Counted from the stretch's first letter, positions 4,148 through 58,688 are shown. The stretch: 64,000 bases of DNA from Rhodospirillaceae bacterium (GCA_018660465.1 JABJKH010000065.1:3728-67727); one strand, 5' to 3'. Numbers and translations are program-made. Notes: generated from the letters alone by a model not told the origin.

Positions 4148-4341
4148 AGCTATCCTTCAATTGTTGGTATGGAATATACAATCCAGGTCAAAAGCTTCAG
4201 CGTCTAAGGACACTTGTTATTTATGACTGCCAATAGCAAGATTAAAGGCGTACGTATAGCCAAATTTTTATTTTTACTCCCACATCCAGTATCGAAAGCA
4301 AAGTTCTGAACTCTAAAAATTTACATTATTCTGGTCTTGCA
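4148..4341. promoter_or_regulatory. AT-rich divergent intergenic region; must carry promoters for the rSAM gene (-) and the YfhO-like operon (+)
   Basis: 194-bp gap between divergently oriented start codons (4147 minus, 4342 plus), visibly AT-rich. I could not assign specific -35/-10 or operator motifs. Confidence 0.4.
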
Positions 4342-6417: not shown

Positions 6418-6464
6418 AAAACCATCCCTAATTGCTGTCCAAATAGGTTCATAAGAATAAACTC

Positions 6465-8015
6465 ATGTCGTTAGTTACACTGATACGTCCCCCGGTCTTG
6501 GTCGCTAAATGGGCGCACACAACTCCCACGTGCCCACCGATCGGCCTCGCCTATTTAGCGGCGGTGTTAATTGGAAATGACATAGCGGTTAACGTCGTCG
6601 ATGCAGTAGGCAATGCACCCGATCAAATGCTGCCCACGGATGACGAAAGATTCCTCTCTCACGGCCAATCAACCGAAGAAATTATTGAGGGAATCGATCC
6701 AGCAACTCAAATCATTGGCATTTCTTGTATGTTTTCACATGAATGGCCGCTGATCCGATCTTTAATTACGCGATTGAAGGAAGTTTTTCCTCAAATTTTA
6801 ATTGTCGGCGGTGGTGAGCATATAACGGCACTGCCAGAATTCTCTCTCGAGGATTGCGGAGCACTTGACGTTGGGATAATTGGCGAAGGTGAGGAAACAC
6901 TTACCGAGTTGGTTTCTGCGATACTCGAAAACCGACCCCTGGATGCAATAACCGGTATTGTTTATCGGAATAATGGGAGCATTCTTAAAACCGCGGCGCG
7001 CACTAGAATTCGTAATATTGATAACATCGCCCTTCCGGCCTGGGAGTTGTTTCCATTAGACACCTATTTGGATAACGGATATGGGTTCGGTGTCAATCGC
7101 GGGCGATCCATGCCAGTCCTGGCCACCCGCGGTTGCCCGTATCAGTGCACGTTCTGTTCCAACCCGACGATGTGGGGAACTCGGTGGGTTTCGCGTAGCC
7201 CTGAACAAGTGTTCGACGAAATGCTGCAATATCATAAGCGTTATCAAATTGATAACTTCGATTTCTACGACCTGACAGCAATCGTTAAGAAGAAGTGGAT
7301 CGTCGAATTTTGCCGGATGGTCATTGATTCAGGGGTTAAATTCACGTGGCAACTCCCGAGTGGCACCCGCTCGGAAGCGATTGACGAGGAGGTTTCCGAG
7401 CTTTTGTACCAATCCGGTTGCCGCAACATGAGCTACGCTCCCGAAAGTGGATCACCGAGCGTCTTGCTGCGTATTAAGAAAAAGATCGACCTCAAATCCA
7501 TGGAGGCTTCGATGAGAGACTCCATTAGAAATGGCATTAACTGCAAGGCCAACATCATCATTGGATTTCCCAACGAGACTCATAAGGAGATATTTCAAAC
7601 CCTATGGTTCTGCGTCCGAATGGCGGCGATTGGGATTCACGATGTGTCGCTTTCTCCATTTTCTCCATACCCCGGCTCAGAATTGTTCTCGAATATGCAA
7701 AATGACGGCCAAATTCCTGAGTATAGCGACGAATTCTTCTATGGATTGGCTGCATACACAGATTTGACAACAACCACGTCCTGTTCAAAATACGTCGGCG
7801 ACCGAGCGCTTGGATTTTATCGAATTTTCGGCATGCTCCTATTTTACGGCGTTCTTTATCTGTTACGGCCCTGGCGGCTGGTACGCACGCTTCGTAATGT
7901 CTTCGGTGAATTTCAGGAATCCCGCTTGGAAATGTCGCTTCGAGACCTTTACATTCGCTTGTGTAAATCCAAGGATTCTACGGTAGCTACCCCGGCTCGG
8001 AGTACACACAAATGA
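6465..8015 (+). CDS. B12-binding-domain radical SAM protein (class B rSAM), paralog 2
   Basis: IIGISCMFSHEWP...IVGGGEHITAL...IIGEGE, then TRGCPYQCTFCSNP (Cys codons at 7134, 7146, 7155). It aligns along its length with the 2582-4147 product. C-terminal helix FYRIFGMLLFYGVLY. Confidence 0.9.
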   Translation: MSLVTLIRPPVLVAKWAHTTPTCPPIGLAYLAAVLIGNDIAVNVVDAVGNAPDQMLPTDDERFLSHGQSTEEIIEGIDPATQIIGISCMFSHEWPLIRSLITRLKEVFPQILIVGGGEHITALPEFSLEDCGALDVGIIGEGEETLTELVSAILENRPLDAITGIVYRNNGSILKTAARTRIRNIDNIALPAWELFPLDTYLDNGYGFGVNRGRSMPVLATRGCPYQCTFCSNPTMWGTRWVSRSPEQVFDEMLQYHKRYQIDNFDFYDLTAIVKKKWIVEFCRMVIDSGVKFTWQLPSGTRSEAIDEEVSELLYQSGCRNMSYAPESGSPSVLLRIKKKIDLKSMEASMRDSIRNGINCKANIIIGFPNETHKEIFQTLWFCVRMAAIGIHDVSLSPFSPYPGSELFSNMQNDGQIPEYSDEFFYGLAAYTDLTTTTSCSKYVGDRALGFYRIFGMLLFYGVLYLLRPWRLVRTLRNVFGEFQESRLEMSLRDLYIRLCKSKDSTVATPARSTHK

Positions 8016-11235: not shown

Positions 11236-12870
11236 ATGCCTGTTCTCCTCCGCCAATCGTTTGACCTTCCATCGTCTGATTCATACAGAACTTGGTTCTC
11301 GGTCACGGGAACTGAAAGTTTTCTTGATGCCCAATCGAAACGATCTCGATTGGCGGAACAACTTGAAACTGCCTTTATGGAAAGCCGGGAAACTTGGTGG
11401 ACAATCGGTCTAAAAATAAGCCAGGAACCCACAGCCGAGATTTCCCATATGCCAACTGGTGGCGCATTCGGATCAGACTTCGGCGTGATGCTGGCATGGT
11501 CCCGGATTACGGCAGACGTCGCTAAAGACGAAAATGTGTGTTTGGTTTTATGCGACGACCCGTGGCTATTTCGGCATTTAGCCAAACTTTCGGGTGTGAC
11601 GGCAGGCAGGCCGCCACGGCTCCGCCTTACAGAACTAAAACTTTCCATCCGAGGGTGGTTGGCGCGAACCAAGACAGCTCTAAAAAACGCGCTGTTTTCA
11701 ACTCGACTGGTTAAGACCCAAGGCCAGGGCAGCGCAGCCATTCTGGTCTATGGCCATCCGCGCAGCACCGCCGACGGCTTCGATGCTTATTTCGGCGACC
11801 TGATGGCCCATGAACCAGAACTTCAACGCATCCTTCATACTGATTGCGATGCGGCGCGAGCGCGAGAACTCTCATCAAAAGGTCGAACGTCAAGTCTGCA
11901 CGCTTGGGGCCATACGTTTTTTGCGCTCCGTCTAATTTGGACAAAATGGCGGCCTGGGCGAGTTTTTACTGAAGGCAAATACGGCTGGCTGGTGCGCCGC
12001 GCTGCGGCAAAGGAGAACAGTGGCGGAGGCCCCGCCATGAACCGCTGGCAACTTCATTGCCAAGATAATTGGTTGAAAGAAGCAAAACCTTCTCGGGTAT
12101 GCTGGCCTTGGGAAAATCACAGTTGGGAAAGGGGGCTATGCCGCGCTGGTCGGAAACACGGTGTCCACACTCTCGGTTATCAGCACACTGTCGTCGGTCC
12201 CCATCAAATAAATTATTCGACCCGCACCAACCCTGATGGATTGGACAGCATCCCGGAAATAGTCATTTGTGACGGCCCTGCTTATCGAGATGAAGTTGCA
12301 GCTTGGGGCGTGCCTGATGATCGCCTGATCGTCGGTGGTGCCTTTCGGTTTAAAAGGTTTGCACCTGGAAGCCACGATCCATCAGGCCCCGTGTTCGTGC
12401 CATTGTCTGCCGTCCCTGCCGCAGCCCAAAAACAAATCGAGGCTGCGCACCTGTTGGCGGCCTCCGGCCAAAAAGTTCTCGTTAAAGGACATCCCATGTA
12501 TCCGGTGGCGTTCAGCGAGATAGAAAACCTGAGCCGCACAGAAACCCCACTTACGGAGCAAGCCGGTTTGTCCGCTGTGTTATTTTGTACCGGAACGTCT
12601 GGTTTGGAAGCCGTGTTGATGGGCCTCCCGGCCTATCGATTAATGCTCGATGATCGCATTGCGATTGATATCCTGCCTGCCAACATCAATGTGCCTAGCG
12701 TCACATTAGACGACGTCACCGAACAGGTTACTGGAAAGGTTCCGATTCGGCCCGTTAACTGGGATTCAGTTCTAACCGAGCCCGACATAAACCTTTGGCA
12801 TTCGCTGCTTTTCGGTGATATGCACGCGATGAACGACGTTCAAGAACCAGAGAAGAAACAAGTATCGTGA
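11236..12870 (+). CDS. Conserved-looking hypothetical protein; C-terminal half GT-B/TagF/KpsS-like? (function unknown)
   Basis: Long 544-aa ORF, translationally coupled to the next gene (GTGA at 12867-12870). C-terminal KVLVKGHPMYP...VLFCTGTSGLEAVLMGLPAY resembles the nucleotide-binding half of GT-B-type transferases. I recognise no diagnostic motif. Confidence 0.5.
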   Translation: MPVLLRQSFDLPSSDSYRTWFSVTGTESFLDAQSKRSRLAEQLETAFMESRETWWTIGLKISQEPTAEISHMPTGGAFGSDFGVMLAWSRITADVAKDENVCLVLCDDPWLFRHLAKLSGVTAGRPPRLRLTELKLSIRGWLARTKTALKNALFSTRLVKTQGQGSAAILVYGHPRSTADGFDAYFGDLMAHEPELQRILHTDCDAARARELSSKGRTSSLHAWGHTFFALRLIWTKWRPGRVFTEGKYGWLVRRAAAKENSGGGPAMNRWQLHCQDNWLKEAKPSRVCWPWENHSWERGLCRAGRKHGVHTLGYQHTVVGPHQINYSTRTNPDGLDSIPEIVICDGPAYRDEVAAWGVPDDRLIVGGAFRFKRFAPGSHDPSGPVFVPLSAVPAAAQKQIEAAHLLAASGQKVLVKGHPMYPVAFSEIENLSRTETPLTEQAGLSAVLFCTGTSGLEAVLMGLPAYRLMLDDRIAIDILPANINVPSVTLDDVTEQVTGKVPIRPVNWDSVLTEPDINLWHSLLFGDMHAMNDVQEPEKKQVS

Positions 12871-13976
12871 CCAATCTTCCCCTAAAAATTGCCCTCATTG
12901 GCTGCGGTCGCATTGCCGGCCATCATTGCCAATCCATCGGACAAGTTGATGGTGTCGAACTTGCCGCTGTCTGTGATCTGGACGTTGCGAAAGCGAAAGC
13001 CTATGGCGATCAGTTTTCTGTGCCGCATTTCACGGACTATCATGACATGTTCCAAGCAGTCCCCGAGATCGATATCGCCGCCGTCATTACCCCATCAGGC
13101 ATGCACTTTGAACACGGCGCGGACGTGATCGAACGCTATAAAAAACACCTGATCATGGAAAAGCCAACGTTCATGCGGCCCGAACAACTTCATACAGCGT
13201 ATGGCGCTGCGGATAATCACGGGCTTCATATTTTTCCGGTATTCCAGAACCGCAATAACAAGGCTGTGCGGCGCGTGCGAAAAGCGCTGGCGGCGGGCGA
13301 GCTTGGGGATATTCGGATCGTTTCGGTCCGGGTTCGCTGGTGTCGACCGCAGCGATACTATGACATGGCTCCGTGGCGCGGTACCTATTCGCACGATGGT
13401 GGCTGCCTGACCAACCAGGGAATTCATCACGTCGACCTGCTGCGGCATTTGGGTGGTGAGGTCGAGCGAATCAACGCCACCATGCGAACTCTTGGGGCCG
13501 ACATTGAGGTTGAAGATGCCCTGGTTGCCACAATGGCCTATAAGTCGGGTGCGATTGGCAATCTAGAAGTGACGACAGCTGCCAGACCCGATGATTTTGA
13601 GGCGTCGCTCTCAATCGTCGGTTCCGAAGGTCTCGCCCAAATTGGCGGCATTGCCGTGAACGAACTACAAGTATTTACGCCGGACCCAGGTGAGTGCGCC
13701 GACAACAGCGAAGATTTCGTTGGAATCAAAGGCCACGGGGCAGTTTACGGCTACGGCCATACGGATATGTATTCAGACATTGCTGCTTTCTTCCGCGACA
13801 AGTCACCCTATCCTGTAGATCGCAACGATTGCCTTGGGACCTTAAAACTCCTTCACGCATTTTATCGCTCAGATGAAGCGGGCGGTTGGGTCGATGTAGA
13901 CAGTGATGAGCAATCGGTACGCCTTGGCCGCGACAATGACGAAGTCTCCAACCTCTATCGGACACCCGCACCGTGA
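12867..13976 (+). CDS. Gfo/Idh/MocA-family NAD(P)-dependent oxidoreductase
   Basis: N-terminal Rossmann KIALIGCGRIAGHH, EKP motif (IMEKPTF) and a C-terminal alpha/beta domain. Confidence 0.85.
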   Translation: MTNLPLKIALIGCGRIAGHHCQSIGQVDGVELAAVCDLDVAKAKAYGDQFSVPHFTDYHDMFQAVPEIDIAAVITPSGMHFEHGADVIERYKKHLIMEKPTFMRPEQLHTAYGAADNHGLHIFPVFQNRNNKAVRRVRKALAAGELGDIRIVSVRVRWCRPQRYYDMAPWRGTYSHDGGCLTNQGIHHVDLLRHLGGEVERINATMRTLGADIEVEDALVATMAYKSGAIGNLEVTTAARPDDFEASLSIVGSEGLAQIGGIAVNELQVFTPDPGECADNSEDFVGIKGHGAVYGYGHTDMYSDIAAFFRDKSPYPVDRNDCLGTLKLLHAFYRSDEAGGWVDVDSDEQSVRLGRDNDEVSNLYRTPAP

Positions 13977-15019
13977 CCGAACCTCTCAAAATCGGAATTG
14001 CAGGATATGGCGTGGTCGGCAACCGCCGCCGCCAAGTGATCGACAAGCGCTCAGACATGAAGGTCGTCGCTGTTTGCGATCAGAAACTGGGGGGGGATGG
14101 CGTCTTTGACGATGGCGTTAAATTTTTTGGTGAATACAGTCCCCTACTGGAAGAAAATCTCGATGTATTGTTTGTATGCCTGACCAACGATTTAAACCCG
14201 GATGTCAGCATTGCCGGGCTTGAGCGCGGTCTACATGTGTTCTGCGAAAAACCACCGGGGCGAGATGTCGGCGATGTGACGCGGGTAATTGCCTGCCATC
14301 AGAAACACCCCAACCTAAAGCTCAAATATGGATTTAATCACCGCTACCATGATTCGGTCCTGGATGCGCTGCGGCTGGTGCAGTCGGGGGAATTGGGCAA
14401 AGTCATTAATCTCCGGGGACTTTACGGAAAGTCTCAGCTGATTACCTTCGGTCAAAGTTCATGGCGGACAGACAGGAAACTTTCAGGCGGCGGTGTGCTG
14501 CTGGACCAGGGTATTCATATGGTGGACTTGCTGAGGCTATTCGCAGGCGAATTTGTCGATGTGAATAGTTTTATTTCAAACGGTCATTGGAACCACGACG
14601 TCGAAGACAACGCCTATGCCTTGATGCGGACAGAAGCCGGCGTCGTCGCCATGCTGCATTCATCCGCAACCCAATGGCGGCACCGGTTTAATTTGGAAAT
14701 TTCCTTGGAATTGGGCTCGATTACCCTGTCAGGCATCTTATCCGGATCTAAAAGCTACGGCGCGGAAACCATGACCGTGGCACGCACGGCCGGTGATGAT
14801 ATGGGCGATCCCCGAGAAGAAACCACGCGCTACAACAAAGACACTTCATGGGCCGACGAGGTGGCCGAATTCGCAACGGCTATCCAGGATAACACTCCGA
14901 TTACCAACGGCTCCGCTGAAGACGCATTGAAAACAATGGGACTGGTCTATCGTATTTACTGCGCGGATTCCGAATGGAAAGCTAAATGGGGCTTGAGCCA
15001 TGACGTTCCGGCGTTATAA
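13973..15019 (+). CDS. Gfo/Idh/MocA-family NAD(P)-dependent oxidoreductase (second, tandem)
   Basis: LKIGIAGYGVVGNRR and CEKPPG. 4-nt overlap with the upstream paralog. Confidence 0.85.
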   Translation: MTEPLKIGIAGYGVVGNRRRQVIDKRSDMKVVAVCDQKLGGDGVFDDGVKFFGEYSPLLEENLDVLFVCLTNDLNPDVSIAGLERGLHVFCEKPPGRDVGDVTRVIACHQKHPNLKLKYGFNHRYHDSVLDALRLVQSGELGKVINLRGLYGKSQLITFGQSSWRTDRKLSGGGVLLDQGIHMVDLLRLFAGEFVDVNSFISNGHWNHDVEDNAYALMRTEAGVVAMLHSSATQWRHRFNLEISLELGSITLSGILSGSKSYGAETMTVARTAGDDMGDPREETTRYNKDTSWADEVAEFATAIQDNTPITNGSAEDALKTMGLVYRIYCADSEWKAKWGLSHDVPAL

Positions 15020-15049
15020 GTACCGCACAACGTTTCGGATTGAGAGAGA

Positions 15050-15439
15050 ATGAGCGCACACCGCCAGACTGACAGAGCCTTCGGTATTATGTTTGCCGTG
15101 GTTTTTTCCATTGTCTTTGCCATTGCGCACTTCGGTTTTGCTGTTCGCTTGGACTGGGCGTTATGGGTGGCAGGTGGTTTTTTGGTCCTCGCGCTCCTGG
15201 TCCCTTGGCTGCTGATGCCGTTAAACAGACTTTGGGAAAAGTTTGCGTTTCGTCTCGGCTTTGTCAGCAACCACCTCCTGCTGGGCGCTTTCTTTTTCCT
15301 TTTTGTTTTCCCAATTAGCCTTATGCTCCGCGTCTTCGGTTCCGATCCGATGCATCGGAAGTTCGAGCCAAAATCAGACACGTATTGGTCCAAGGTCACC
15401 CGTCACACGAACCGGGAGACCTTTGGTGATATGTTTTAG
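15050..15439 (+). CDS. SxtJ-like small membrane protein
   Basis: 129 aa with three hydrophobic segments and a C-terminal ...LMLRVFGSDPMHRKFEPKSDTYWSKV...GDMF. This matches my recollection of the SxtJ family that accompanies carbamoyltransferases. Confidence 0.65.
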   Translation: MSAHRQTDRAFGIMFAVVFSIVFAIAHFGFAVRLDWALWVAGGFLVLALLVPWLLMPLNRLWEKFAFRLGFVSNHLLLGAFFFLFVFPISLMLRVFGSDPMHRKFEPKSDTYWSKVTRHTNRETFGDMF

Positions 15440-15452
15440 ACGGAATTAATCT

Positions 15453-15605
15453 ATGCTCTCAGTCTTCGGCCAACTTATTAAGTTTATGCGCGTCTATAAG
15501 AAATTCTGGATGGCGCCGCTTATTTTTGGGCTGGTCGCCCTCGGCGGTCTGTTAATCGCCGCCCAAAGCACCGCCATCGCTCCCTTTATTTATATGATTT
15601 TCTAG
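15453..15605 (+). CDS. DUF5989 / SxtK-like 50-aa membrane peptide (not in supplied ORF track)
   Basis: Manual translation: MLSVFGQLIKFMRVYKKFWMAPLIFGLVALGGLLIAAQSTAIAPFIYMIF*. It has a basic KKFW segment, a single TM and the family-typical C-terminal APFIY-x-x-F. It lies between the SxtJ-like gene and the carbamoyltransferase. Confidence 0.65.
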   Translation: MLSVFGQLIKFMRVYKKFWMAPLIFGLVALGGLLIAAQSTAIAPFIYMIF

Positions 15606-15617
15606 GCGCATCTCACC

Positions 15618-17411
15618 TTGATCGTTCTCGGCATTTCAGCATTTTACCATGACAGCGCCGCGGCCCTGGTCCGCGACGGTGAAATTGTTGCGGCCGCACA
15701 GGAAGAGCGCTTCACGCGAAAGAAAAATGATTCTGAATTTCCCGCAAATGCCATCGCCTATTGCTTGAACGAAGCTGGCGTTACGCTTGATGACGTCGAC
15801 TATGTTGGATTTTACGATAAGCCGTTGCTGACCTTTAACAGGCTATTAGAGACTTATCTTTCTTTTGCACCCCGAGGATTGCCGTCATTTGTTAAGGCGA
15901 TCCCGGTTTGGGTTAAAGAAAAAATTCTTCAAAAAAATCTGATTTTGAAAGGCGTTAATGGGCTTGATCTCGGAACAACCGACGAAGATAAAATCCTGTT
16001 CGGGTTTCACCATCATTCCCATGCCGCCAGTGCCTTCTACCCGTCGCCCTTTGATGAGGCGGCAATTCTGATTATGGATGGCGTCGGAGAATGGGCGACA
16101 ACGTCCACAGGCATCGGCAAGGGCAATGATGTTACCTTGGAAAAAGAAATTCGTTTTCCTCATTCCCTGGGAATGCTGTATTCCGCATTTACCTCTTATC
16201 TAGGTTTTAAAATCAACGATGGCGAATACAAGGTCATGGGACTGGCCCCCTATGGGGAGCCGAAATACGTTGATGTGATGCGGGACAATCTAATCGATTT
16301 CAAAGATGACGGCTCGTTTCGCCTGAACATGGATTATTTTAATTATTGCATCGGCCTGACCATGACCAATAGCAAGTTTGCCGACTTGCTTGGCGGGCCT
16401 ACCAAACATCCGGCCCAGCCCATGACCCAGCGCGATATGGACATCGCCCGCTCGGTTCAGGTGATAACAGAGGAGGCTGTTTTAAATCTTTGTCGCGGCT
16501 TGCAAAAAGAAACCGGGCAAAAAAATTTATGCATGGCGGGGGGCGTTGCGCTCAACTGTGTCGCAAATGGTAGATTATTACGTGAAGGGCCGTTTGAGAA
16601 TATTTGGATACAACCTGCAGCAGGCGATGCCGGCGCATCATTAGGTGTCGCTTTGGCGATTTCCCATAGTCAAGGTGGCGTTGACCGAAAACCCGCAAAC
16701 GGGTCTAGAGACGCCATGCAAGGATCCTATTTAGGGCCCGCCTACGCCGAGGATACTGTTAAGGAAATCTTGGATACGGCCGGTGCAAACTATGACATCT
16801 TGGAAGATGCGGAATTGTTTAAAAATGTCGCCGAGGTATTGGCGGACGAAAAGGTTGTCGGCTGGTTTCAAGGGCGGACAGAGTTTGGTCCAAGGGCGCT
16901 CGGCAACCGGTCCATTCTGGGTGACCCCCGTTCCGAACGCATGCAGCGGATGCTTAATCTCAAGATAAAATACCGGGAAAGTTTTAGGCCCTTTGCACCA
17001 GCAGTTTTGCGCGAAGACGTTTCAGAATTTTTCGACCTAGATGGTGACAGCCCCTACATGCTGCTGGTCGCGCAAGTGAAAGACAAATTACACCAAGACC
17101 TATCTGAAGCAGAGGCTGCGCTAAAAGGCTTAGATAAACTCTATGCCGTTCGCAGCACGGTCCCCGCCATTACCCATGTCGATTATTCAGCCCGCATCCA
17201 AACAGTTCACACCGATACCAACCCGCGCTTCCATAAATTACTTGAAACGTTCAAGGAACAATCCGGCAATGGGATGTTGGTAAACACCAGCTTTAATGTC
17301 CGCGATGAGCCAATCGTCTGTTCGCCAGAGGATGCGTATCGGTGTTTCATGGCCACCGAAATGGACATGCTTGTGCTGGGCAACGTGGTCCTGTTGAAGG
17401 AGAACCAGTGA
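15618..17411 (+). CDS. NodU/CmcH-family carbamoyltransferase
   Basis: N-terminal MIVLGISAFYHDSAAALVRDGEIVAAAQEERFTRKK, then ...GGVALNCVANG...NTSFNVRDEPIV. 597 aa. TTG start. Confidence 0.9.
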   Translation: MIVLGISAFYHDSAAALVRDGEIVAAAQEERFTRKKNDSEFPANAIAYCLNEAGVTLDDVDYVGFYDKPLLTFNRLLETYLSFAPRGLPSFVKAIPVWVKEKILQKNLILKGVNGLDLGTTDEDKILFGFHHHSHAASAFYPSPFDEAAILIMDGVGEWATTSTGIGKGNDVTLEKEIRFPHSLGMLYSAFTSYLGFKINDGEYKVMGLAPYGEPKYVDVMRDNLIDFKDDGSFRLNMDYFNYCIGLTMTNSKFADLLGGPTKHPAQPMTQRDMDIARSVQVITEEAVLNLCRGLQKETGQKNLCMAGGVALNCVANGRLLREGPFENIWIQPAAGDAGASLGVALAISHSQGGVDRKPANGSRDAMQGSYLGPAYAEDTVKEILDTAGANYDILEDAELFKNVAEVLADEKVVGWFQGRTEFGPRALGNRSILGDPRSERMQRMLNLKIKYRESFRPFAPAVLREDVSEFFDLDGDSPYMLLVAQVKDKLHQDLSEAEAALKGLDKLYAVRSTVPAITHVDYSARIQTVHTDTNPRFHKLLETFKEQSGNGMLVNTSFNVRDEPIVCSPEDAYRCFMATEMDMLVLGNVVLLKENQ

Positions 17412-18421
17412 TGGGGGCTCTTGAAACACCGATGTTTTCCGACCGAATTCTTGCCACCTTAAAAGCACCCGGAGGAGCGGACGACACGACCATGGAATTG
17501 GTCGACGGCGGTCTCAGGTGTACTGAAACAGGTGAGGCGTCTCCCTACATTGATGGCATCCCGTCGCTTTATGTTCCCAATGAAGGCGAAGGCAAGGACG
17601 TCACGGCGCGGGTAAAATCGTTTTATGAAGAGAACCCGTTTCCCAGCTACGAAGGGTTGGAAGAATTCGGCGAACTCGTGAACAAGGGAAGTCACAATCC
17701 CTTCTCAGCACAGTTGCTGAAAGCCATCGGCTACAACAAGACAGTGCTGGAATGCGGCTGCGGCACAGGTCAACTCAGCCATTTTTTACAGCTCAATAAC
17801 AATCATGTCCTCGGTATTGATATGTCGTTGGGGAGCCTGCGCCTAGCAGTGGAACACAAACTTCGAAATAGCCTCGAACGATCAGCCTTCGCGCAAATGA
17901 ATATCTTCGACATGGCGATTAAGGATAACTCATTCGACGTGGTGATTTCCCACGGTGTGCTTCACCATACCTTTGATGCCAAACGTGCGTTCGCGCAAAT
18001 TTGCCGCAAGGTTAAACCCGGGGGCATTATCATGGTCGGCCTCTACAACAGCTACGCTCGTATTCCGACATGGCTTAGATCCAAGGTCATTGGGGTCTTA
18101 GGCACAAACATTGATTACGTGGTCAGAAACCGTATCGAAGACGAACGCAAGGCTGATATCTGGGTGAAGGATCAATACTATAACCCTCATGAAACCTGGC
18201 ACTCGGTCGGGGAAGTCCTTGGTTGGTTCAAGGAAAATGGAATCGATTACCTGAATGCATCACCGGCCATCATGGGTACTGATGGAGAGGACACTGCTAA
18301 TTTATTTGATGAGACAAGCCCGGGAAACGGCTATCAACGCGCCGTCACTCAGGTTTCCTGGCTTGGCACCATCGCCCGAGAAGGGGCCTTGTTTGATGTC
18401 ATTGGTCGCAAAGCTCAATAG
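17411..18421 (+). CDS. Class I SAM-dependent methyltransferase with N-terminal Trm112-like ribbon
   Basis: The likely start is the ATG at 17411, overlapping the carbamoyltransferase stop (TGATG); the track start at 17342 lies inside the upstream gene. N-terminal ILATLKAPGG...LRCTETGEASPYIDGIPSLYV. Motif I VLECGCGTGQLSHFL, then ISHGVLHHTFD and VKPGG. Confidence 0.8.
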   Translation: MGALETPMFSDRILATLKAPGGADDTTMELVDGGLRCTETGEASPYIDGIPSLYVPNEGEGKDVTARVKSFYEENPFPSYEGLEEFGELVNKGSHNPFSAQLLKAIGYNKTVLECGCGTGQLSHFLQLNNNHVLGIDMSLGSLRLAVEHKLRNSLERSAFAQMNIFDMAIKDNSFDVVISHGVLHHTFDAKRAFAQICRKVKPGGIIMVGLYNSYARIPTWLRSKVIGVLGTNIDYVVRNRIEDERKADIWVKDQYYNPHETWHSVGEVLGWFKENGIDYLNASPAIMGTDGEDTANLFDETSPGNGYQRAVTQVSWLGTIAREGALFDVIGRKAQ

Positions 18422-19501
18422 ATGGACGAGGGCGCAGCAAAATTAACCTGGAAGGGGCGGCTGATTGCATCTTTCGTAGGACTGCTGCTTTTAGTTTTAA
18501 TTTCTGAAGGCGTACTCCGGGTCGGCATGCCGCACTGGAGAGATTTTTATAGCGGATGGTTTATGCGCACAATTTCTGTGCCGAACCACGGCATTGTAAC
18601 AACTGGCCTGCCAGGGTTTGATGGCTATTTTGCCCAGAACAATGGTGATTTTCGAGTAAAAATAAATATCAATTCCTTTGGACTTCGTAATCCAGAACCA
18701 GTCTCAAATGCAAAGGGTCGTACCTGGATCATTGGCGATTCAATGGCCTTTGGTTGGGGTGTCGAACAACAGGAAGTGTATTCCAGCGTAATTGGAAAAA
18801 TTCATGGCCCAACTTATAATGTCGCCAGCCCAGGCACCGACGTTTGTGGTTATCAAGCGCTAACGGCCCGAATGCCGAAGAACGACATACCCCGAGCGGT
18901 TATAGTTGGCCTAATTCTGGAAAACGATATCTTAAACAAAAATTGCCAGGCTCAGGCCAAAGCCCAAATGGATTTAAAGGCGTTTTTAAGTAAAGAAGAA
19001 AAAAAGACATTAACTTGGCCGACTTTAAAACGACAACTAACCGAATTTTCTGCACTTTATAATTTTATGGCGGTTGGCATTAAACGCATTGGTTTAGTGA
19101 GAGAAATTTTAACGTCGCTCGGAATTATTCGCACCCTTGAATTAGAAAAAGGGCAGTTCACTGCCCCAGAAATAAATGCCAGCGTGAAAAGTACGGTGAG
19201 CGAGCTTATAAACCTTAAGGCCATGTTTCCAAAAAGAACACCCTTTGCCGTACTAGTAGCCCCTACCCGCTTTGAGCTTAAAGAATCAACCGATTATTAT
19301 ACAAGCTTGCGTCTGGCTGTGCTCCGAGAATTAAAGGCAAATAATATTTCTGTAATTGACCCATATCCGCAATTTCAAAAAGCCGGGTATTCTAAAATAC
19401 ATTTCGCCCACGACGGCCATTGGACGGTGCTTGGGCACAAGCTTGCCGCAGAGGAAGCGGCGAAATGGCTGAAACAAAATTTACCAGCTAGCGCGAGATA
19501 A
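18422..19501 (+). CDS. SGNH/GDSL-family hydrolase/acyl-esterase-like protein with N-terminal membrane anchor
   Basis: N-terminal TM (LIASFVGLLLLVLISEGVL). Block I WIIGDSMAFGWGV, block III LILENDI, block V HFAHDGHWTVLGH (DxxH). Confidence 0.7.
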   Translation: MDEGAAKLTWKGRLIASFVGLLLLVLISEGVLRVGMPHWRDFYSGWFMRTISVPNHGIVTTGLPGFDGYFAQNNGDFRVKININSFGLRNPEPVSNAKGRTWIIGDSMAFGWGVEQQEVYSSVIGKIHGPTYNVASPGTDVCGYQALTARMPKNDIPRAVIVGLILENDILNKNCQAQAKAQMDLKAFLSKEEKKTLTWPTLKRQLTEFSALYNFMAVGIKRIGLVREILTSLGIIRTLELEKGQFTAPEINASVKSTVSELINLKAMFPKRTPFAVLVAPTRFELKESTDYYTSLRLAVLRELKANNISVIDPYPQFQKAGYSKIHFAHDGHWTVLGHKLAAEEAAKWLKQNLPASAR

Positions 19502-19506
19502 GAAAT

Positions 19507-20271
19507 ATGAAAATAATTGGCGTTGTCCCCGCCCGCATGGCGGCCAGCCGGTTTCCTGGCAAACCCTTGCACCCCATTTTAGGCCGCCCAATGCTGGAGC
19601 ACTGTTTTGAACGGGCAAAATTTTATCCTAAGTGGGACGGGTTATTTATAGCGACCTGTGACACAGAGATTGAAGATTTTGCAACTTCAAAAAATTATCC
19701 GGTGATCATGACTGCTGATACCCATACGCGCGCGCTTGACCGGGTTGCGGAAGCTGCTGAGAAATGTGATGTCGATTTGGCTGAAGACGACATTGTCGTA
19801 TGTGTCCAAGGCGACGAACCCTTGCTAGGTGATGATGTAATCGACGCGGTGGTGACACCGTTCGAGAGCGATTCGACGGTTCGGGGAACCATGCTAGCGG
19901 TTCCCATCCATGATGAAGAAACCTTCCTAAACCCCGATATCGTCAAGTTAGTTGCGGACTTGAATGGTGATATTCTCTACACGTCGCGGAGCCCCATTCC
20001 CTACGGCAAGAAATTTTCGCCCGATCTTGGTGCACTTCGAGTCGGCGGTATTTTTGGCTTTCGGTGGGATTTCTTAAAATGGTTCACGGCAACTCCTGAA
20101 TCGCCTCTTGAGATCAAAGAAGCTTGCGATTCAAACCGCATCTGTGACAATGGCTTTCGTCAGCGTATGGCCCCCATTCCCTATCGAGCCTATGTGTCTG
20201 TCGACAGCCCCGAGGATATTGGTCGTGTTGAAGCTGTAATGAAGTCTGATTCTCTTTGGGATAAGTATTAA
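19507..20271 (+). CDS. KdsB/NeuA-family cytidylyltransferase (CMP-ulosonic/acidic sugar synthetase-like)
   Basis: N-terminal MKIIGVVPARMAASRFPGKPLHPILGRPML and VQGDEPL, hallmarks of CTP_transf_3 enzymes. Confidence 0.8.
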   Translation: MKIIGVVPARMAASRFPGKPLHPILGRPMLEHCFERAKFYPKWDGLFIATCDTEIEDFATSKNYPVIMTADTHTRALDRVAEAAEKCDVDLAEDDIVVCVQGDEPLLGDDVIDAVVTPFESDSTVRGTMLAVPIHDEETFLNPDIVKLVADLNGDILYTSRSPIPYGKKFSPDLGALRVGGIFGFRWDFLKWFTATPESPLEIKEACDSNRICDNGFRQRMAPIPYRAYVSVDSPEDIGRVEAVMKSDSLWDKY

Positions 20272-20955
20272 ATGAATTCTTTTAAGGCCATTATCTTTGA
20301 CCTGGATGGCACCCTAATTGACAGCGTCCCCGACGTGCGGGCCGCTGTAAATAGAGTGCTCGACGAAATAGGTCGTCCATCGCTATCTCTCGAAGACATT
20401 ACCGGCATGATCGGCGAAGGAGCCCAGGTCATGTTGAAAAAAGTTATGGAACAAACTGGTGGATATACGCCAGACATGGAAGAAGAATATCTGGGGCGGT
20501 TCTTGGAAACGTACAAGGCGCACCCGGCGGATCACACGTTGGTTTATCCTGGCGTGTTCAACGTATTGGATCAGCTAAAAGCAGACGGAATTTCCCTAGG
20601 ACTGTGCACAAATAAACCCAGCACAACCACTCTGCCAGCAGTAGCGGCGTTAGACCTGGAAAAATATTTCGAAGCTATCGTCTGTGCCGATATGGTAAAG
20701 CATCGAAAACCAGATGGCCGCCATCTTCTAAACATTTTAGAGCGTATGGGAGCCGACCCCAAAAGTGCCGTTATGGTTGGCGACAGTGAAACGGATATCG
20801 CTGCCGCAGTCGATGCGGGCCTACCTGCCATCGCCGTTTCCTATGGATACTGCCATGTTCCGTTGGATGAGCTACCCTGCGATATTTTAATCGATAATAT
20901 GAGCGAATTGCCCCGAGCACTGGCTGAGATTAGCAAAGGCCAAAGCACCTCGTGA
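20272..20955 (+). CDS. HAD-superfamily phosphatase (phosphoglycolate-phosphatase/Gph-like)
   Basis: Motif I IIFDLDGTLIDS, motif II LCTNKP, motif III/IV K...VGDSETDIAAA. Confidence 0.85.
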   Translation: MNSFKAIIFDLDGTLIDSVPDVRAAVNRVLDEIGRPSLSLEDITGMIGEGAQVMLKKVMEQTGGYTPDMEEEYLGRFLETYKAHPADHTLVYPGVFNVLDQLKADGISLGLCTNKPSTTTLPAVAALDLEKYFEAIVCADMVKHRKPDGRHLLNILERMGADPKSAVMVGDSETDIAAAVDAGLPAIAVSYGYCHVPLDELPCDILIDNMSELPRALAEISKGQSTS

Positions 20956-21902
20956 CTAAGGTCGCCGTCACATCGCGTTCATTTTCCCGCCACCCTGTTC
21001 TGCGGGCAGCGCTATTGGAACGCTACGATAACGTCACCTTCAACGACGACGGAAAAAAAATAACGGGTGCCGATTTACTCGCGTACTTAGATGGACACGA
21101 CAAGGCAATTACGGCGCTCGAAATTATCGACCATGCTTTGTTGCAGGCATTGCCCGGCCTGAAGGTGATCTCCAAGTATGGCGTTGGCTATGACATGGTT
21201 GATTTGGACGCCATGGTCGATCATAGCGTCAGGCTGGGTTGGACCGGGGGGGTTAACAAGCGGTCGGTCTCAGAGTTGGTTATCTCGATGGCGGTTGCGT
21301 TGCTGCGGCATGTGCCCATCGCAAACGGGGAAATGCGCACGGGGACTTTTCGCCAGCATGTCGGTCGTCAGCTGTCTGATTGCACGATCGGCATCGTTGG
21401 GTGTGGGCATGTCGGCAAGGACCTCGCGAAACTTCTACGCGCTTTTGGTTGCCGGGTCTTGGCCAACGATATTTTAGATTTTCCTGAATTCTACAGCGAA
21501 ACCGGCGTTATGCCTGCCAGTCTTGAAACGGTCCTAAAAGACTCAGAAGTTGTGACCCTGCACCTGCAATTAGATGACACCACGAAAAATATACTGGACG
21601 AAAGACACCTCGGCTTAATGAAACAAGGTGCTGTCCTCATTAATGCAGCGCGGGGCGGATTAGTGGATGAGGCGGCTCTAAAGTCAGTACTCAAATCCGG
21701 TGCGTTGGCCGGTGCTGGGTTTGATGTGTTTCGCACAGAGCCGCCAGATGATTTGGAATTGCTGAATTTGCCCAACTTTCTGGCGACACCGCATATTGGC
21801 GGCAGCGCGGAAGAGGCAATCTTAAACATGGGACGGGCAGCGATTGCCGGTCTCGATGATAATCAAATACCAGAGCGCGGCGTGTTCCCCGAAGGTTGGT
21901 AA
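20952..21902 (+). CDS. D-isomer-specific 2-hydroxyacid dehydrogenase (phosphoglycerate-dehydrogenase-like)
   Basis: GTG start overlapping the HAD stop. NAD site IGIVGCGHVGKDLAKLLRAFGCRV, then NAARGGLVDEAAL and the catalytic region TPHIGGSAEE. Confidence 0.85.
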   Translation: MTKVAVTSRSFSRHPVLRAALLERYDNVTFNDDGKKITGADLLAYLDGHDKAITALEIIDHALLQALPGLKVISKYGVGYDMVDLDAMVDHSVRLGWTGGVNKRSVSELVISMAVALLRHVPIANGEMRTGTFRQHVGRQLSDCTIGIVGCGHVGKDLAKLLRAFGCRVLANDILDFPEFYSETGVMPASLETVLKDSEVVTLHLQLDDTTKNILDERHLGLMKQGAVLINAARGGLVDEAALKSVLKSGALAGAGFDVFRTEPPDDLELLNLPNFLATPHIGGSAEEAILNMGRAAIAGLDDNQIPERGVFPEGW

Positions 21903-21905
21903 ACT

Positions 21906-22820
21906 CTAATCTGGTTTGCGGGCGGAGATGTACCAAGCAAACCCCATAACACGACCCAGAAATTGCTCCAGCTTTGACTGCATCGGCCACGGCTGGCCAT
22001 AGACTAAAACACCGCCAGGATGGGTGCCATAACGCCGAATTTGATAGCGCCGATAGATGCGGCCTAGCTTTGGGATCAGATAAAAATAGAATTCGCCTTT
22101 GCGAAATTTTATATCTTTAAATCGTTGAAAAATATTCTTTATTTGGGATCCCGTATAACATCGTGTAATAGGGTTTTCCACGGTCTGGGCGTTCTTTCCG
22201 CCCCATTCCGTGGCCTTTCCAAGCCAATTGGGGTCCCCAAAAGCCTTTCCTTTGAGCACGCCGACACACAGGAACATATTAACCCAATAATGCCACGAGC
22301 TTTTGCAATACAGCAGGATGACGGCCTGCCCGCCGGGCTTGAGAACCCGAAAAACTTCGGCAATGGACGCTTCCGTATCCAAGGTGTGGTGCAAGACGCC
22401 ATTGGAATAAACGATGTCAAACGAGCCATCCGAAAACGGCAACTTTTCCGCATCGCCTTGAAGGGCGGCGCATTCGTTGGCGACATCTCCCATCAACTCA
22501 AATTTGGCCGCTGTCGCGCGCGCACGTTGAAACGTCAAATCAATGCTGGTCATCTTTGCACCGTGCTTGGCAAACAGCGCCGAATGGCCCCCCGCCCCGG
22601 GTCCGATTTCAAGAACCCGCTTTCCGGCCAACTTAGCCAATGGCATTTCCACCGCCGCCAAGTGCCCGCGCAGACGAAACATATCTTCCAGATCTTCCAG
22701 ACTTTCAAACAAGCGGTCGCGGGTCAGGTCGCGGTCCACGTCCTCATAAAGCGAGTCATAGAGAGAGCCCCAAAAGTCCTGGATATTTTCTTTGGTTGCG
22801 GGATCGGGCATGCAGGTCAT
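21906..22820 (-). CDS. Class I SAM-dependent methyltransferase
   Basis: Motif I VLEIGPGAGGHSALFAKHGA, then YSNGVLHHTLD and LKPGG. Same subfamily signature (GVLHHT-D) as the 17411-18421 product. Confidence 0.8.
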   Translation of the reverse strand: MTCMPDPATKENIQDFWGSLYDSLYEDVDRDLTRDRLFESLEDLEDMFRLRGHLAAVEMPLAKLAGKRVLEIGPGAGGHSALFAKHGAKMTSIDLTFQRARATAAKFELMGDVANECAALQGDAEKLPFSDGSFDIVYSNGVLHHTLDTEASIAEVFRVLKPGGQAVILLYCKSSWHYWVNMFLCVGVLKGKAFGDPNWLGKATEWGGKNAQTVENPITRCYTGSQIKNIFQRFKDIKFRKGEFYFYLIPKLGRIYRRYQIRRYGTHPGGVLVYGQPWPMQSKLEQFLGRVMGFAWYISARKPD

Positions 22821-24617: not shown

Positions 24618-26510
24618 ATGTGTGGAATTTTCGGGCTCTTCCTGCCGACGTCGGCGTCCCACATGGATGCCGATCTGTCTTCCATGCTGTCAGTCCTAAA
24701 ACATCGGGGGCCGGATGGGGATGAAACTTATGTCAGCGAAGACCGGCGCTATCAGGCGGGCTTTCGTCGGCTCGCAATCATTGACCTAGAAACCGGCGAT
24801 CAACCTATTGTCGAGCAAAACAACGCTCGGGTGTTGATGGGAAACGGGGAGATTTATAACTACCTGGAGCTTCGAAAAGAAGAACCCGGCTACCCCTATC
24901 AAACATCCGGCGACATGGAGGTCATACTTCCCCTTGCAACCCGTCATGGCGATGATTTTATTCAAAAGCTCAATGGCATGTTCGGGCTAGCGCTCTACGA
25001 AAAAGACAGCCACCGCCTGCTTTTGGTTCGTGATCGCCTCGGCATAAAACCGATCTATTGGGCGAAGTTGCCAAATGGCGGTGTATTGTTCGCCTCTGAA
25101 ATCAAGGCTCTGTTTGCGTCGGGATTGCTGGCCCCTGCCATCGACGAAACGGCCATTTCGCCATATCTCGCCCATGGCTACGTCCCGGCACCACAGACTT
25201 TGTTTAAGGGCGTTCAAAAGCTCCCGCCCGGGCATCAACTCAGCGTCGATGCAAAAGGTGATATTTCAGTAAAGCGGTATTGGCGTGCTGAAGCAGCTAC
25301 GGACCTGCCTTCATCAGAAGAGGAAATTGCGGCGTATCTGGAATCTCTCCTCGACGACAGCGTCCGCCTACAACTTCGAAGCGATGTCCCCGTCGGTGCC
25401 CTGCTTTCCGGCGGCCTCGACTCGGGACTGATGGTCGCCCTGGCTGCGGGGCAATCATCGCAGCCTCTCAACACCTATACCGTAAGCTTTGAAGGGGCTG
25501 CGGTTGATGAGGGACCGTTGGCTGCTACCATCGCTGAAAGGTACGAGACCAATCATACGAACCTGTCACTCCCCGCAGGGGATATCTCCCGTCTTCTCCC
25601 CCTTCTCGCCTGGCACATAGAAGAGCCTCTAAACGATGCGGCCCTACTGCCCAATTTTCTGATTGAGAAGGAACTGGGGCAGCATTTAAAAGTTGCCCTG
25701 AATGGAACCGGTGGCGATGAGCTTTTTGCCGGATACGGTAGGTATTTTCAGCTTCCTGTCGAAAAGCGTTTTCTTTCTCTCCCTCGTGGAATTTGTGCAA
25801 TGGCAAAATTTGGTGCTGGGCTGGTTTCGCCCATGACCCGATGGCAATTGGGACGGGCCGAAAAGTTTTTTCAAAACCGCGGCCAATACATTCACGAGCA
25901 TTCGACCCATTTCCCAAAACCGGTGCGCGACCTGATTGGAAACCAAAGCGGAGATACCAACTCTGTACAGTCCCAAGCCTTCCAAGAGTTTTCGGGAGAT
26001 GCTCAGTCTGGAGGGCTGTACGCTGATCTTTGCACCTACTTACCGGACGATTTGCTCACCTTGCTCGACCGGACTTCTATGGCAGTCAGTGTGGAAGGGC
26101 GGGTGCCGTTCTTGGATCATCGGTTTGTAGAGGCATGTCTGGCCGTGCCAGCCCACATACGGACGCCGAATGACCGGCAAAAATCGCTAGAAAGAAATAT
26201 AGCGTCTAAATACCTTCCAGATGAGGTTTTAAGCGCACCAAAGCAAGGCTTCGCATCGCCAGTCCCAGCATGGATAAAGGCGGGTCTAGGCCCCCTGGCA
26301 AAACGCCTCCTCACAAATAAACGCGCACTGGAGCGCGGCTGGTGGACGGCGGACGGCATTGATCGGCTTTTGGCCAAACCCGATCTGCATGGTTTTAGAG
26401 TTTATTCTCTGCTTATGCTTGAACTTGCCGTCACAACGTTTATTGAATCGCCCATGAACAATTCCTATCCACCCACCGCCAGTCTGAATGACCTTGCCGA
26501 AGCCGCCTGA
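24618..26510 (+). CDS. Asparagine synthase (glutamine-hydrolysing)-family amidotransferase, copy 1
   Basis: N-terminal nucleophile MCGIFG, GATase-II core (NGEIYNY) and synthetase PP-loop LLSGGLDSG. Confidence 0.9.
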   Translation: MCGIFGLFLPTSASHMDADLSSMLSVLKHRGPDGDETYVSEDRRYQAGFRRLAIIDLETGDQPIVEQNNARVLMGNGEIYNYLELRKEEPGYPYQTSGDMEVILPLATRHGDDFIQKLNGMFGLALYEKDSHRLLLVRDRLGIKPIYWAKLPNGGVLFASEIKALFASGLLAPAIDETAISPYLAHGYVPAPQTLFKGVQKLPPGHQLSVDAKGDISVKRYWRAEAATDLPSSEEEIAAYLESLLDDSVRLQLRSDVPVGALLSGGLDSGLMVALAAGQSSQPLNTYTVSFEGAAVDEGPLAATIAERYETNHTNLSLPAGDISRLLPLLAWHIEEPLNDAALLPNFLIEKELGQHLKVALNGTGGDELFAGYGRYFQLPVEKRFLSLPRGICAMAKFGAGLVSPMTRWQLGRAEKFFQNRGQYIHEHSTHFPKPVRDLIGNQSGDTNSVQSQAFQEFSGDAQSGGLYADLCTYLPDDLLTLLDRTSMAVSVEGRVPFLDHRFVEACLAVPAHIRTPNDRQKSLERNIASKYLPDEVLSAPKQGFASPVPAWIKAGLGPLAKRLLTNKRALERGWWTADGIDRLLAKPDLHGFRVYSLLMLELAVTTFIESPMNNSYPPTASLNDLAEAA

Positions 26511-57368: not shown

Positions 57369-57402
57369 ACCCGATTGTTACTCTGCCATGGTTTACAATG
57401 TC

Positions 57403-58644: not shown

Positions 58645-58650
58645 CTCTTG

Positions 58651-58688
58651 GAAACAAAAAATAACCGGCAAACTGTTGTTTGCCGGTT
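58651..58688 (-). terminator. Rho-independent terminator downstream of amtB
   Basis: Minus strand: AACCGGCAAAC-AACA-GTTTGCCGGTT followed by ATTTTTTGTTTC. An 11-bp perfect stem, 4-nt loop and a T-run. A second imperfect hairpin (GCCGTCAG...CTGACGGC, 58716-58746) precedes it. Confidence 0.7.

Follow-up and report, generated by a model that had tools for sequence, protein, structure and literature searches.

A KdsB-like cytidylyltransferase in bacterial surface-polysaccharide loci probably belongs to a cassette for a CMP-activated sugar other than Kdo

[quoted passage not shown] What does a KdsB-family cytidylyltransferase activate in a locus where no such synthase is seen? This question is raised by three adjacent genes at positions 19507-21902 of a 64,000-nucleotide stretch of DNA from a Rhodospirillaceae bacterium (GCA_018660465.1, JABJKH010000065.1:3728-67727; hereafter the window, with positions counted from its first letter). 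The trio encodes the cytidylyltransferase, a Gph-like HAD phosphatase and a D-2-hydroxyacid dehydrogenase (2HADH) resembling phosphoglycerate dehydrogenase (PGDH). We propose that these genes represent the form taken in one lineage by a widespread cassette that supplies a CMP-activated sugar, with a reasonable chance that both the sugar and an aldolase-independent route to it are new.

The cytidylyltransferase gene (19507-20271, plus strand, ATG start) encodes 254 amino acids (aa) matching PF02348 CTP_transf_3 (E = 1.7e-40). It is followed on the same strand by the gene for the HAD-IA phosphatase (20272-20955, ATG start, 227 aa; HAD_2, E = 3.3e-41) and by that for the 2HADH (20952-21902, GTG start, 316 aa; 2-Hacid_dh_C, E = 2.5e-51). 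The first junction is of 0 nt (taaATG at 20269-20274) and the second is a 4-nt overlap (GTGA at 20952-20955), so that the open reading frames (ORFs), the Pfam and NCBIfam matches and both junction sequences bear out a preliminary description of this DNA as three coupled genes of these families. The same gene order and gene calls are found on a contig of a public Rhodospirillaceae metagenome-assembled genome (MAG; GCA_018700815.1, locus L020). The trio closes, on the 3' side, a tightly packed operon of ~10.7 kb (11236-21902), counted as 12 genes, all of which point in the same direction. Its remaining junctions measure, in order, -4, -4, +30, +13, +12, -1, 0 and +5 nt, and a scan of its interior for promoters and terminators found no enrichment of either.

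We compared the cytidylyltransferase with canonical KdsB enzymes. Every public annotation calls it KdsB, its top match in the PDB is a KdsB (8EES, E = 3.8e-37), and it is ~35% identical to solved or annotated canonical KdsBs; no plasmid-borne relative with a curated annotation is closer than this. It scores above the cutoff of the looser subfamily model NF003952 (215.6 versus 193 bits) and below that of the kdsB equivalog TIGR00466 (144.9 versus 155.2). We then aligned 130 members of its clade to E. coli KdsB, whose numbering is used hereafter. The residues that serve catalysis with cytidine triphosphate (CTP) and Mg (R10, R15, K19, Q98, D100, R213 and D235) are invariant in all 130 sequences. 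Other positions, those of the sugar site among them, differ: H181 is replaced by V or I, Y185 and Y187 by F, N96 by C and F155 by T, positions 74-76 read R-A-L versus the canonical S-G-T, positions 209-212 read C-D-S-N versus L-E-Q-L, and A189 is W in 109 of the 130 sequences. The canonical residues (S/N74-G75-T76, H181, Y185 and L209-E210-Q211-L212) are kept in all five canonical KdsBs compared, which are annotated genes from E. coli, Parabacteroides, Fusobacterium and a Streptomyces plasmid together with H. influenzae 1VH3. [quoted passage not shown]

Sequence identity within the clade, which spans Alphaproteobacteria, Bdellovibrionota, Spirochaetota (Leptospira) and unclassified Proteobacteria, is 56-78%, as compared with 41-48% among canonical KdsBs from different phyla and 27-37% between the clade and canonical KdsBs. 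This pattern points to a specialized enzyme that has spread horizontally while being tightly constrained. In Leptospira noguchii, the copy falls in a cluster with just two sequences from two contigs. This is in keeping with an accessory gene, since a housekeeping gene of so heavily sequenced a genus would look otherwise. The differences at the sugar site, together with travel across phyla in a polysaccharide cassette, make this enzyme of the KdsB family very unlikely to be a plain CMP-Kdo synthetase, and to this extent the preliminary interpretation is supported. We consider it probable that the cassette is specialized for a non-Kdo CMP-sugar rather than built around a housekeeping KdsB.

A scan of 1.84 billion protein representatives returned 385 matches at E <= 1e-30. 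Of the best 150, 133 were full-length, and these we sorted by signature. The canonical signature was found in 45 of them, that of the present clade in ~25, and a third one in ~50. Members of this third class, which include representatives P0376-P0442, carry R74, Q181, I/M185 and [VI]-D-M-[LMN]-R at 209-213, and belong neither with canonical KdsB nor with this clade. The full canonical KdsB signature was also seen on a linear plasmid of Streptomyces sp. NBC_01471 (NZ_CP109451.1; L024, 9986-10729); Streptomyces is a Gram-positive actinomycete and should have no lipopolysaccharide.

We further investigated which genes accompany the cytidylyltransferase in other genomes. Related loci were gathered from one scan of representative genomes (13 loci) and from look-ups of homolog-bearing contigs, and the window genes were compared with them by tblastn. 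Twenty loci are centered on the cytidylyltransferase (L001-L018, the source-MAG copy L020, and L021 from Magnetospira thiophila), 18 of them with upstream DNA; L001, L002 and L004 are nearly one locus. Two Gfo/Idh/MocA oxidoreductases encoded further upstream in the operon, GFO_a (12867-13976, plus strand) and GFO_b (13973-15019, plus strand, overlapping GFO_a by 4 nt), both matching Pfam GFO_IDH_MocA, are present in all 18 loci with upstream DNA, at 55-75% (GFO_a) and 57-80% (GFO_b) identity, the tabulated ranges against the window copies being 57-75% and 61-71%. The 2HADH is present in 14 of the 20 loci at 54-80% identity (tabulated as 54-67% against the window copy, and 64-66% to the cassette copies of L017 and L018), and is divergent (~30%) in Leptospira. 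The HAD phosphatase is found in 13 of the 20, all from Rhodospirillales (L001-L012 and L020), at 40-48% identity; it is absent from L013-L018 and from L021, where an Acyl_transf_3 gene occupies its position. The trio is therefore not what is conserved as a unit, and the invariable partners of the cytidylyltransferase are the two oxidoreductases that the preliminary description left out. The conserved core pairs the cytidylyltransferase with both GFO_a and GFO_b, and in most cases includes the 2HADH, which is an ancestral and frequent member of the cassette, and the HAD phosphatase is an accessory specific to Rhodospirillales. Over a set of 15 loci, we also found the 544-aa protein encoded by the first gene of the operon in 12 (40-47% identity), a heparinase II/III-like protein in 14 (27-50%) and an AsnB-type amidotransferase in 11 (38-64%). 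Altogether, the cassette recurs in surface-polysaccharide loci, and its carriers belong to several phyla; marine Rhodospirillales, magnetotactic bacteria, Leptospira and Bdellovibrionota are among them.

The two oxidoreductases differ in their nearest structures. GFO_a has 3Q2I (E = 3e-61) and 3Q2K (E = 6e-58) as its top PDB matches, with the next best at 2e-23. We take these two entries, labeled in the database only as "dehydrogenase" and "oxidoreductase", to be WlbA of C. violaceum and B. pertussis, a UDP-GlcNAcA 3-dehydrogenase. GFO_a would then lie close to the WlbA class of nucleotide-sugar-acid 3-dehydrogenases, a likeness only suggestive of action on a CMP-sugar. The best match of GFO_b is 3CEA (E = 4.7e-27), generically like inositol or glycoside dehydrogenases, and we regard the protein as a candidate ketoreductase or as a candidate for a second oxidation step.

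The 544-aa protein (11236-12870, plus strand), which is 100% identical in L020 over the covered stretch, has no Pfam match and is a distant member of the "surface carbohydrate biosynthesis" family TIGR04326 (6.5e-14, below cutoff). Its AlphaFold2 model (mean predicted local distance difference test score 90.3) has a GT-B architecture, and a Foldseek search of the PDB with this model returned only generic GT-B glycosyltransferases and UDP-GlcNAc 2-epimerases at E ~ 1e-7; none of these matches pointed specifically to sialyl or Kdo transferases. Across 38 homologs, neither D107-D108 nor K417-x-H419-P420 varies. Bacterial sialyltransferases bind CMP-Neu5Ac through D/E-D/E-G and HP motifs (PMC2169525), which D107-D108 and H419-P420 appear to resemble. 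The protein is a candidate transferase for the CMP-sugar.

The remaining members of the trio were compared with known families as well. The HAD phosphatase carries motif I (FDLDGT) at its N-terminus, exceeds the cutoff of the phosphoglycolate phosphatase equivalog TIGR01449 PGP_bact (202.8 versus 180 bits), has phosphoglycolate phosphatase 2NYV as its top PDB match (E = 6e-29) and weakly matches TIGR01454 (AHBA-associated HAD, E = 8.2e-20). A role in 2-phosphoglycolate salvage, as in the Calvin cycle or DNA repair, does not fit its place: the gene belongs to an O-antigen operon, where it is translationally coupled, and in 13 loci it is found together with that of the cytidylyltransferase. The 2HADH is below the cutoff of every NCBIfam equivalog, the best being PGDH (TIGR01327, 192 versus 454), and its nearest relatives are PGDH and glyoxylate or hydroxypyruvate reductases. 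Its catalytic Arg/Glu/His motifs (NAARGG, TEP and PHIGGS) line up with phosphoglycerate dehydrogenase PHGDH.

A second form of the cassette, found in five loci (L014-L018), one from Leptospira noguchii and the others from MAGs assigned to Bdellovibrionales, Hyphomicrobiales and, in two cases, Proteobacteria, bears on the nature of the sugar. The L. noguchii copy lies inside an O-antigen-type region (CP091953, 1808381-1829148). Here the same four core genes (GFO_a, GFO_b, cytidylyltransferase and 2HADH) are interleaved with others and there is no HAD phosphatase gene. This form carries an AroB-related TIGR04425 "sugar phosphate phospholyase (cyclizing)" scoring 471 bits (cutoff 400), an aminotransferase of class I/II that is HisC-like and always adjoins GFO_a, a short-chain dehydrogenase/reductase (SDR), and often a GmhA-like SIS isomerase. 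The second oxidoreductase is GFO_b in every locus with upstream DNA, and only in L014-L018 is an SDR found beside it. The TIGR04326 protein of this form is full-scoring (554 bits in L017). AroB acts on 3-deoxy-D-arabino-heptulosonate 7-phosphate (DAHP), the 7-phosphate of a 2-keto-heptonate, and GmhA takes heptose 7-phosphates as substrates; the second form therefore points to seven-carbon intermediates. NCBIfam curators have flagged this Leptospira-type TIGR04326/TIGR04425 neighborhood, and L016-L018 hold both families full-scoring together with orthologs of the window GFO_a, GFO_b, cytidylyltransferase and 2HADH. The window form, in contrast, has the HAD phosphatase in place of the AroB-related, SIS, SDR and aminotransferase genes, none of which it carries. 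We found no literature on TIGR04326, TIGR04425, LIC13510 or this combination of genes.

We then searched for the missing synthase. No ORF of at least 150 aa in the window matches PF00793 (KdsA/DAHP-synthase) or PF03102 (NeuB), in line with the earlier statement that the window holds no such enzyme. Because the locus leaves the window at its 5' end, this absence is established for the window only. A parallel statement that the window has no aminotransferase was mistaken, as a class I/II enzyme is encoded at 57403-58671 (minus strand), next to ftsK and outside the polysaccharide locus. Among the 22 related loci, 21 have no aldolase-type synthase; NeuB and a NeuC-type Epimerase_2 protein are encoded only in L019 (Paramagnetospirillum marisnigri, LWQT01000066.1, 2459-4665). 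Pfam searches of 20 further unassigned ORFs in L003-L015 likewise gave no synthase; these ORFs encode methyltransferases, acetyltransferases, deacetylases and one DegT aminotransferase.

A cytidylyltransferase that travels with oxidoreductases and without a synthase has precedents. In Acinetobacter baumannii KL49 and Vibrio vulnificus, the CTP-transferase ElaB makes CMP-Leg5,7Ac2, the Gfo/Idh/MocA protein ElaA, modeled by its authors on WlbA, oxidizes C8, and the SDR ElaC re-reduces it to give the 8-epimer; elaA, elaB and elaC move as a horizontally transferred module (PMC13656337). Similarly, EpaA, in which CTP_transf_3 is fused to an aldo-keto reductase, and the SDR EpaB convert Pse into 8ePse (PMC12053666). 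The present cassette shares with these systems a CTP_transf_3 cytidylyltransferase, horizontal mobility and, on our proposal, a CMP-ulosonic acid as its target; GFO_b is the candidate for the part of their second reductase. It further shares with Ela a Gfo/Idh/MocA dehydrogenase, the linkage of the two being present in 18 of 18 loci with upstream DNA. It differs from Ela in that the cytidylyltransferase is of the KdsB rather than the NeuA/LegF type, the second redox enzyme is a Gfo/Idh/MocA protein rather than an SDR, and no genes for nonulosonic-acid synthesis are linked to it. The PDB matches of GFO_a include no structure labeled ElaA. Ulosonic-acid remodeling cassettes of this make-up, a cytidylyltransferase with two oxidoreductases but without its own synthase, are thus already known; the present one would have a different, KdsB-type base.

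Other known systems resemble parts of the cassette. KdsB and KpsU share with the cytidylyltransferase its fold, length, CTP/Mg catalytic residues, ~35% identity and the top PDB and NCBIfam matches; they differ at the sugar site and positions 74-76, in the sub-cutoff kdsB equivalog score, and in context, which is an O-antigen operon with oxidoreductases here versus a housekeeping one. The WlbA/WbpB and WlbC/WbpE enzymes recall the match of GFO_a to 3Q2I and 3Q2K and the placing of GFO_a beside an aminotransferase in the non-Rhodospirillales form, as an oxidize-then-aminate pair. However, that aminotransferase is HisC-like (class I/II) and not of the DegT type of WlbC/WbpE, the window locus has none, and P. 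aeruginosa-type WbpB is only distant to GFO_a (E = 1e-5 to 1e-7). KdsC and the RifM/NtdB-type HADs are, like the window HAD would be, phosphatases that free a sugar or sugar acid before nucleotide activation; KdsC is of type IIIA, whereas the window enzyme is Gph-like and of subfamily IA.

Our leading explanation, to which we give a little less than an even chance, is that the operon serves to make, and then to remodel, a CMP-activated ulosonic-type acid other than Kdo for O-antigen or exopolysaccharide. A phosphorylated sugar-acid precursor would come from central metabolism, with no need for a dedicated KdsA or NeuB; it might be the phosphate of a 2-hydroxy (aldonic) acid, or that of a DAHP- or Kdo8P-like 2-keto acid. 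The PGDH-like 2HADH would supply or maintain the 2-keto acid function that becomes the anomeric center, and the Gph-like HAD phosphatase would strip the terminal phosphate as KdsC does for Kdo8P, a loss that in the non-Rhodospirillales form could fall to the AroB-related phospholyase. The cytidylyltransferase would attach CMP to the hydroxyl beside the carboxylate. WlbA-like GFO_a may then oxidize a ring hydroxyl of the nucleotide sugar, to be re-reduced by GFO_b for an epimerization as in ElaA/ElaC, or, in the other form, aminated by the HisC-like aminotransferase. The TIGR04326-like GT-B protein would finally transfer the product. For the sugar skeleton, a seven-carbon (heptulosonic) one is our preferred guess; it fits the loss of residues that we take to bind the side chain of Kdo. 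A bolder version, which we hold to be rather doubtful, is that the cassette leads oxidatively, and without an aldolase, to a CMP-activated hept-2-ulosonic acid, or to a carbocyclic quinate-like analogue in the AroB form. The route would run from an aldose or aldonate phosphate to the 2-keto acid by the PGDH-like enzyme, and on through dephosphorylation and CMP activation to epimerization or amination at the nucleotide level.

Several observations weigh against this explanation. Of the 20 loci, 6 have no 2HADH within 10 kb and 7 no HAD phosphatase, so neither can be essential to the core chemistry. The 2HADH also has no recognizable PHGDH phosphate-binding residues, R75 being replaced by Lys and the R54-S55 region not being alignable. 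Two loci of the Magnetospirillum group (L019 and L022) have the GT-B protein, GFO_a and GFO_b with no cytidylyltransferase in the DNA examined, and the oxidoreductases may thus serve another nucleotide sugar. In L019, NeuB and NeuC lie 7 kb upstream of the block formed by a protein of the 544-aa type (unk542), GFO_a and GFO_b, and the 21 kb examined hold no cytidylyltransferase of this clade; a classical synthase may therefore be used in some genomes, or lie outside the present window. A cyclizing AroB-like enzyme would give a carbocycle, which is hard to reconcile with a glycosyl donor. That H181, E210 and Q211 make specific contacts with Kdo is presumed from KdsB structures. Finally, the proposed activities and the glycan product are predictions read from the genes.

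The cassette could instead remodel Kdo itself, the second of the two options in the preliminary description. Housekeeping KdsA would make Kdo8P, the HAD phosphatase would be an extra KdsC, the cytidylyltransferase would activate Kdo or a modified Kdo, GFO_a and GFO_b would epimerize or oxidize it, and the 2HADH would be peripheral. That KdsB subfamilies are the nearest families (215-222 bits), and that ElaABC and EpaAB need no synthase beyond the pathway of their parent sugar, speak for this possibility. We nevertheless find it unlikely, as every Kdo-contact position is altered, Y185 with its bond to the C5 hydroxyl of Kdo among them, and as it leaves unexplained both the conservation of the 2HADH across phyla and the AroB-related and GmhA-like genes of the other form, with their seven-carbon phosphates.

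It is also conceivable, if quite unlikely in our judgment, that the trio is not one pathway. The cytidylyltransferase would then work only with the two oxidoreductases, while the HAD phosphatase and 2HADH make a separate small substituent, for example a hydroxy acid, or else an amino alcohol that the AsnB-type amidotransferase later attaches; their adjacency would reflect no more than the tight packing of the operon. Each of these two enzymes is dispensable in some loci, AsnB genes are conserved neighbors, and an AP_endonuc_2 protein and an SDR are encoded upstream in many loci. Moreover, HAD, PGDH-like and HisC-like enzymes, taken together, resemble pathways to side groups of the serine- or serinol-phosphate type, as reported for C. 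jejuni HS:2. Set against this are the translational coupling of the HAD gene to both of its neighbors and the persistence of the 2HADH gene near or beside that of the cytidylyltransferase in four phyla despite heavy gene shuffling.

A third alternative is that the cytidylyltransferase activates a small 2-hydroxy acid (glycerate, glycolate or lactate) made by the 2HADH and the HAD phosphatase from a phosphorylated glycolytic intermediate, the first option of the preliminary description. The phosphoglycolate phosphatase score of the HAD enzyme and the kinship of the 2HADH with PGDH and glyoxylate/hydroxypyruvate reductases agree with such chemistry, a bulkier and more hydrophobic pocket (A189W in 109 of 130) could suit a smaller substrate, and the nucleophile, a hydroxyl beside a carboxylate, would be chemically the same as in Kdo. 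Yet we know of no PF02348 enzyme that uses a non-sugar acid, and a CMP-hydroxy-acid diester is not an obvious group donor. The invariable partnership with sugar/cyclitol-type oxidoreductases, one of them WlbA-like, and the AroB-like and GmhA-like genes would also go unexplained, which makes this alternative improbable.

Least of all do we credit ordinary CMP-Kdo synthesis, whether by the only KdsB of the organism or by a KpsU-like duplicate for a Kdo-containing capsule: the uniform KdsB annotations and the passed NF003952 cutoff are outweighed by the missed TIGR00466 cutoff, the invariant non-canonical sugar-site signature, the 56-78% identity across phyla in a mobile polysaccharide cassette and the strain-restricted Leptospira copy.

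Three further candidates were rejected. A phosphonate or phosphoramidate cytidylyltransferase was discarded because the window holds no phosphoenolpyruvate mutase or related genes and the best-matching families are all KdsB. KdnB, of the Kdo8N-type KdnA/KdnB pathway, is a type III Fe-ADH (PMC5125639); the aminotransferase-linked enzyme of the other form of the cassette is AroB-related, and the window has neither. The SIS gene of the window (48528-49148) was not retained as a cassette member, as it is 36% identical to the cassette SIS and lies at a distance among housekeeping genes; it is a probable GmhA. A use of the 2HADH to recycle 2-hydroxyglutarate for an alpha-ketoglutarate-dependent, WlbA-like GFO_a was also considered and kept out of the leading explanation.

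The reading of the cassette as one for a non-Kdo CMP-sugar would have consequences beyond this locus. Hundreds of protein clusters automatically annotated as KdsB fall in a clade with a different sugar pocket. Among the KdsB-like sequences that match best, a large share belongs to this clade or to the second non-canonical signature class, so that much annotated CMP-Kdo synthetase may be something else. Should the product prove to be a new ulosonic acid or else a carba-analogue, both a new sugar and a new biosynthetic logic would be involved; this would be a class of monosaccharide so far unrecognized in bacterial surface glycans and would explain serovar- or strain-specific antigens. As carriers are available in culture (Magnetospira sp. 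QH-2, M. thiophila and L. noguchii), the question is open to direct test.

The rest of the operon is carried by only some loci. Between GFO_b and the trio lie genes for an SxtJ-like protein (15050-15439, plus strand), a DUF5989 protein of 50 aa (15453-15605, plus strand) and a NodU/CmcH-type carbamoyltransferase (15618-17411, plus strand), all assigned by Pfam. This insert (15050-17411) is confined to L006-L008, L011, L020 and L021. Its arrangement is presumably that of sxtJ, sxtK and sxtI of saxitoxin clusters, found here in a polysaccharide locus, and suggests an O-carbamoylated glycan. Two more genes, likewise present in only some loci, follow: one for a SAM-dependent methyltransferase (17411-18421, plus strand, start as in L020; Methyltransf_31/11/25), and one for an SGNH/AlgX-like protein (18422-19501, plus strand) matching PF16822 ALGX (1.5e-5) and the LA_2486 family SGNH esterase (8.8e-8), which is probably an O-acyl esterase or transferase.

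Downstream, a convergent gene encodes another SAM-dependent methyltransferase (21906-22820, minus strand; Methyltransf_11/25), called in L020 as 301 aa with its start at 22811. It is often found beside the cassette, with close copies of 57-70% identity in L001, L002, L004 and L010-L013. It is followed on the plus strand by the genes for the heparinase II/III-like protein (from 22640) and the AsnB-type amidotransferase (24618-26510), both assigned by Pfam. The longest heparinase-like ORF, starting at 22640, overlaps the 5' end of the methyltransferase gene by ~180 nt, so the gene probably begins farther in, beyond 22811, as it does in L001.

The window from 1 to ~44500 is a single large surface-polysaccharide locus, whose 5' end extends beyond the window (a GT2 gene lies at 434). 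It holds genes for GT2, GT4 and GT1 transferases, Wzy_C, a WecA-like protein, ManC and two AsnB-type amidotransferases, as well as B12-radical SAM enzymes, methyltransferases and the carbamoyltransferase. A pair of B12-binding radical SAM genes (2582-4147, minus strand, and 6465-8015) stands on either side of a gene for a YfhO-like membrane protein (span 2582-8015), and comparable radical SAM genes recur in L001, L021 and L022. On the other side, a class I/II aminotransferase and ftsK pair borders the polysaccharide locus both in the window (55020-58671) and in Magnetospirillum sp. SS-4 (L022, 20145-21611), which suggests a conserved chromosomal site for a variable locus. Near this border, a 1619-aa ORF (49268-54127, minus strand) encodes a large NAD-specific glutamate dehydrogenase (PF05088, E = 7.6e-257) unrelated to the cassette.

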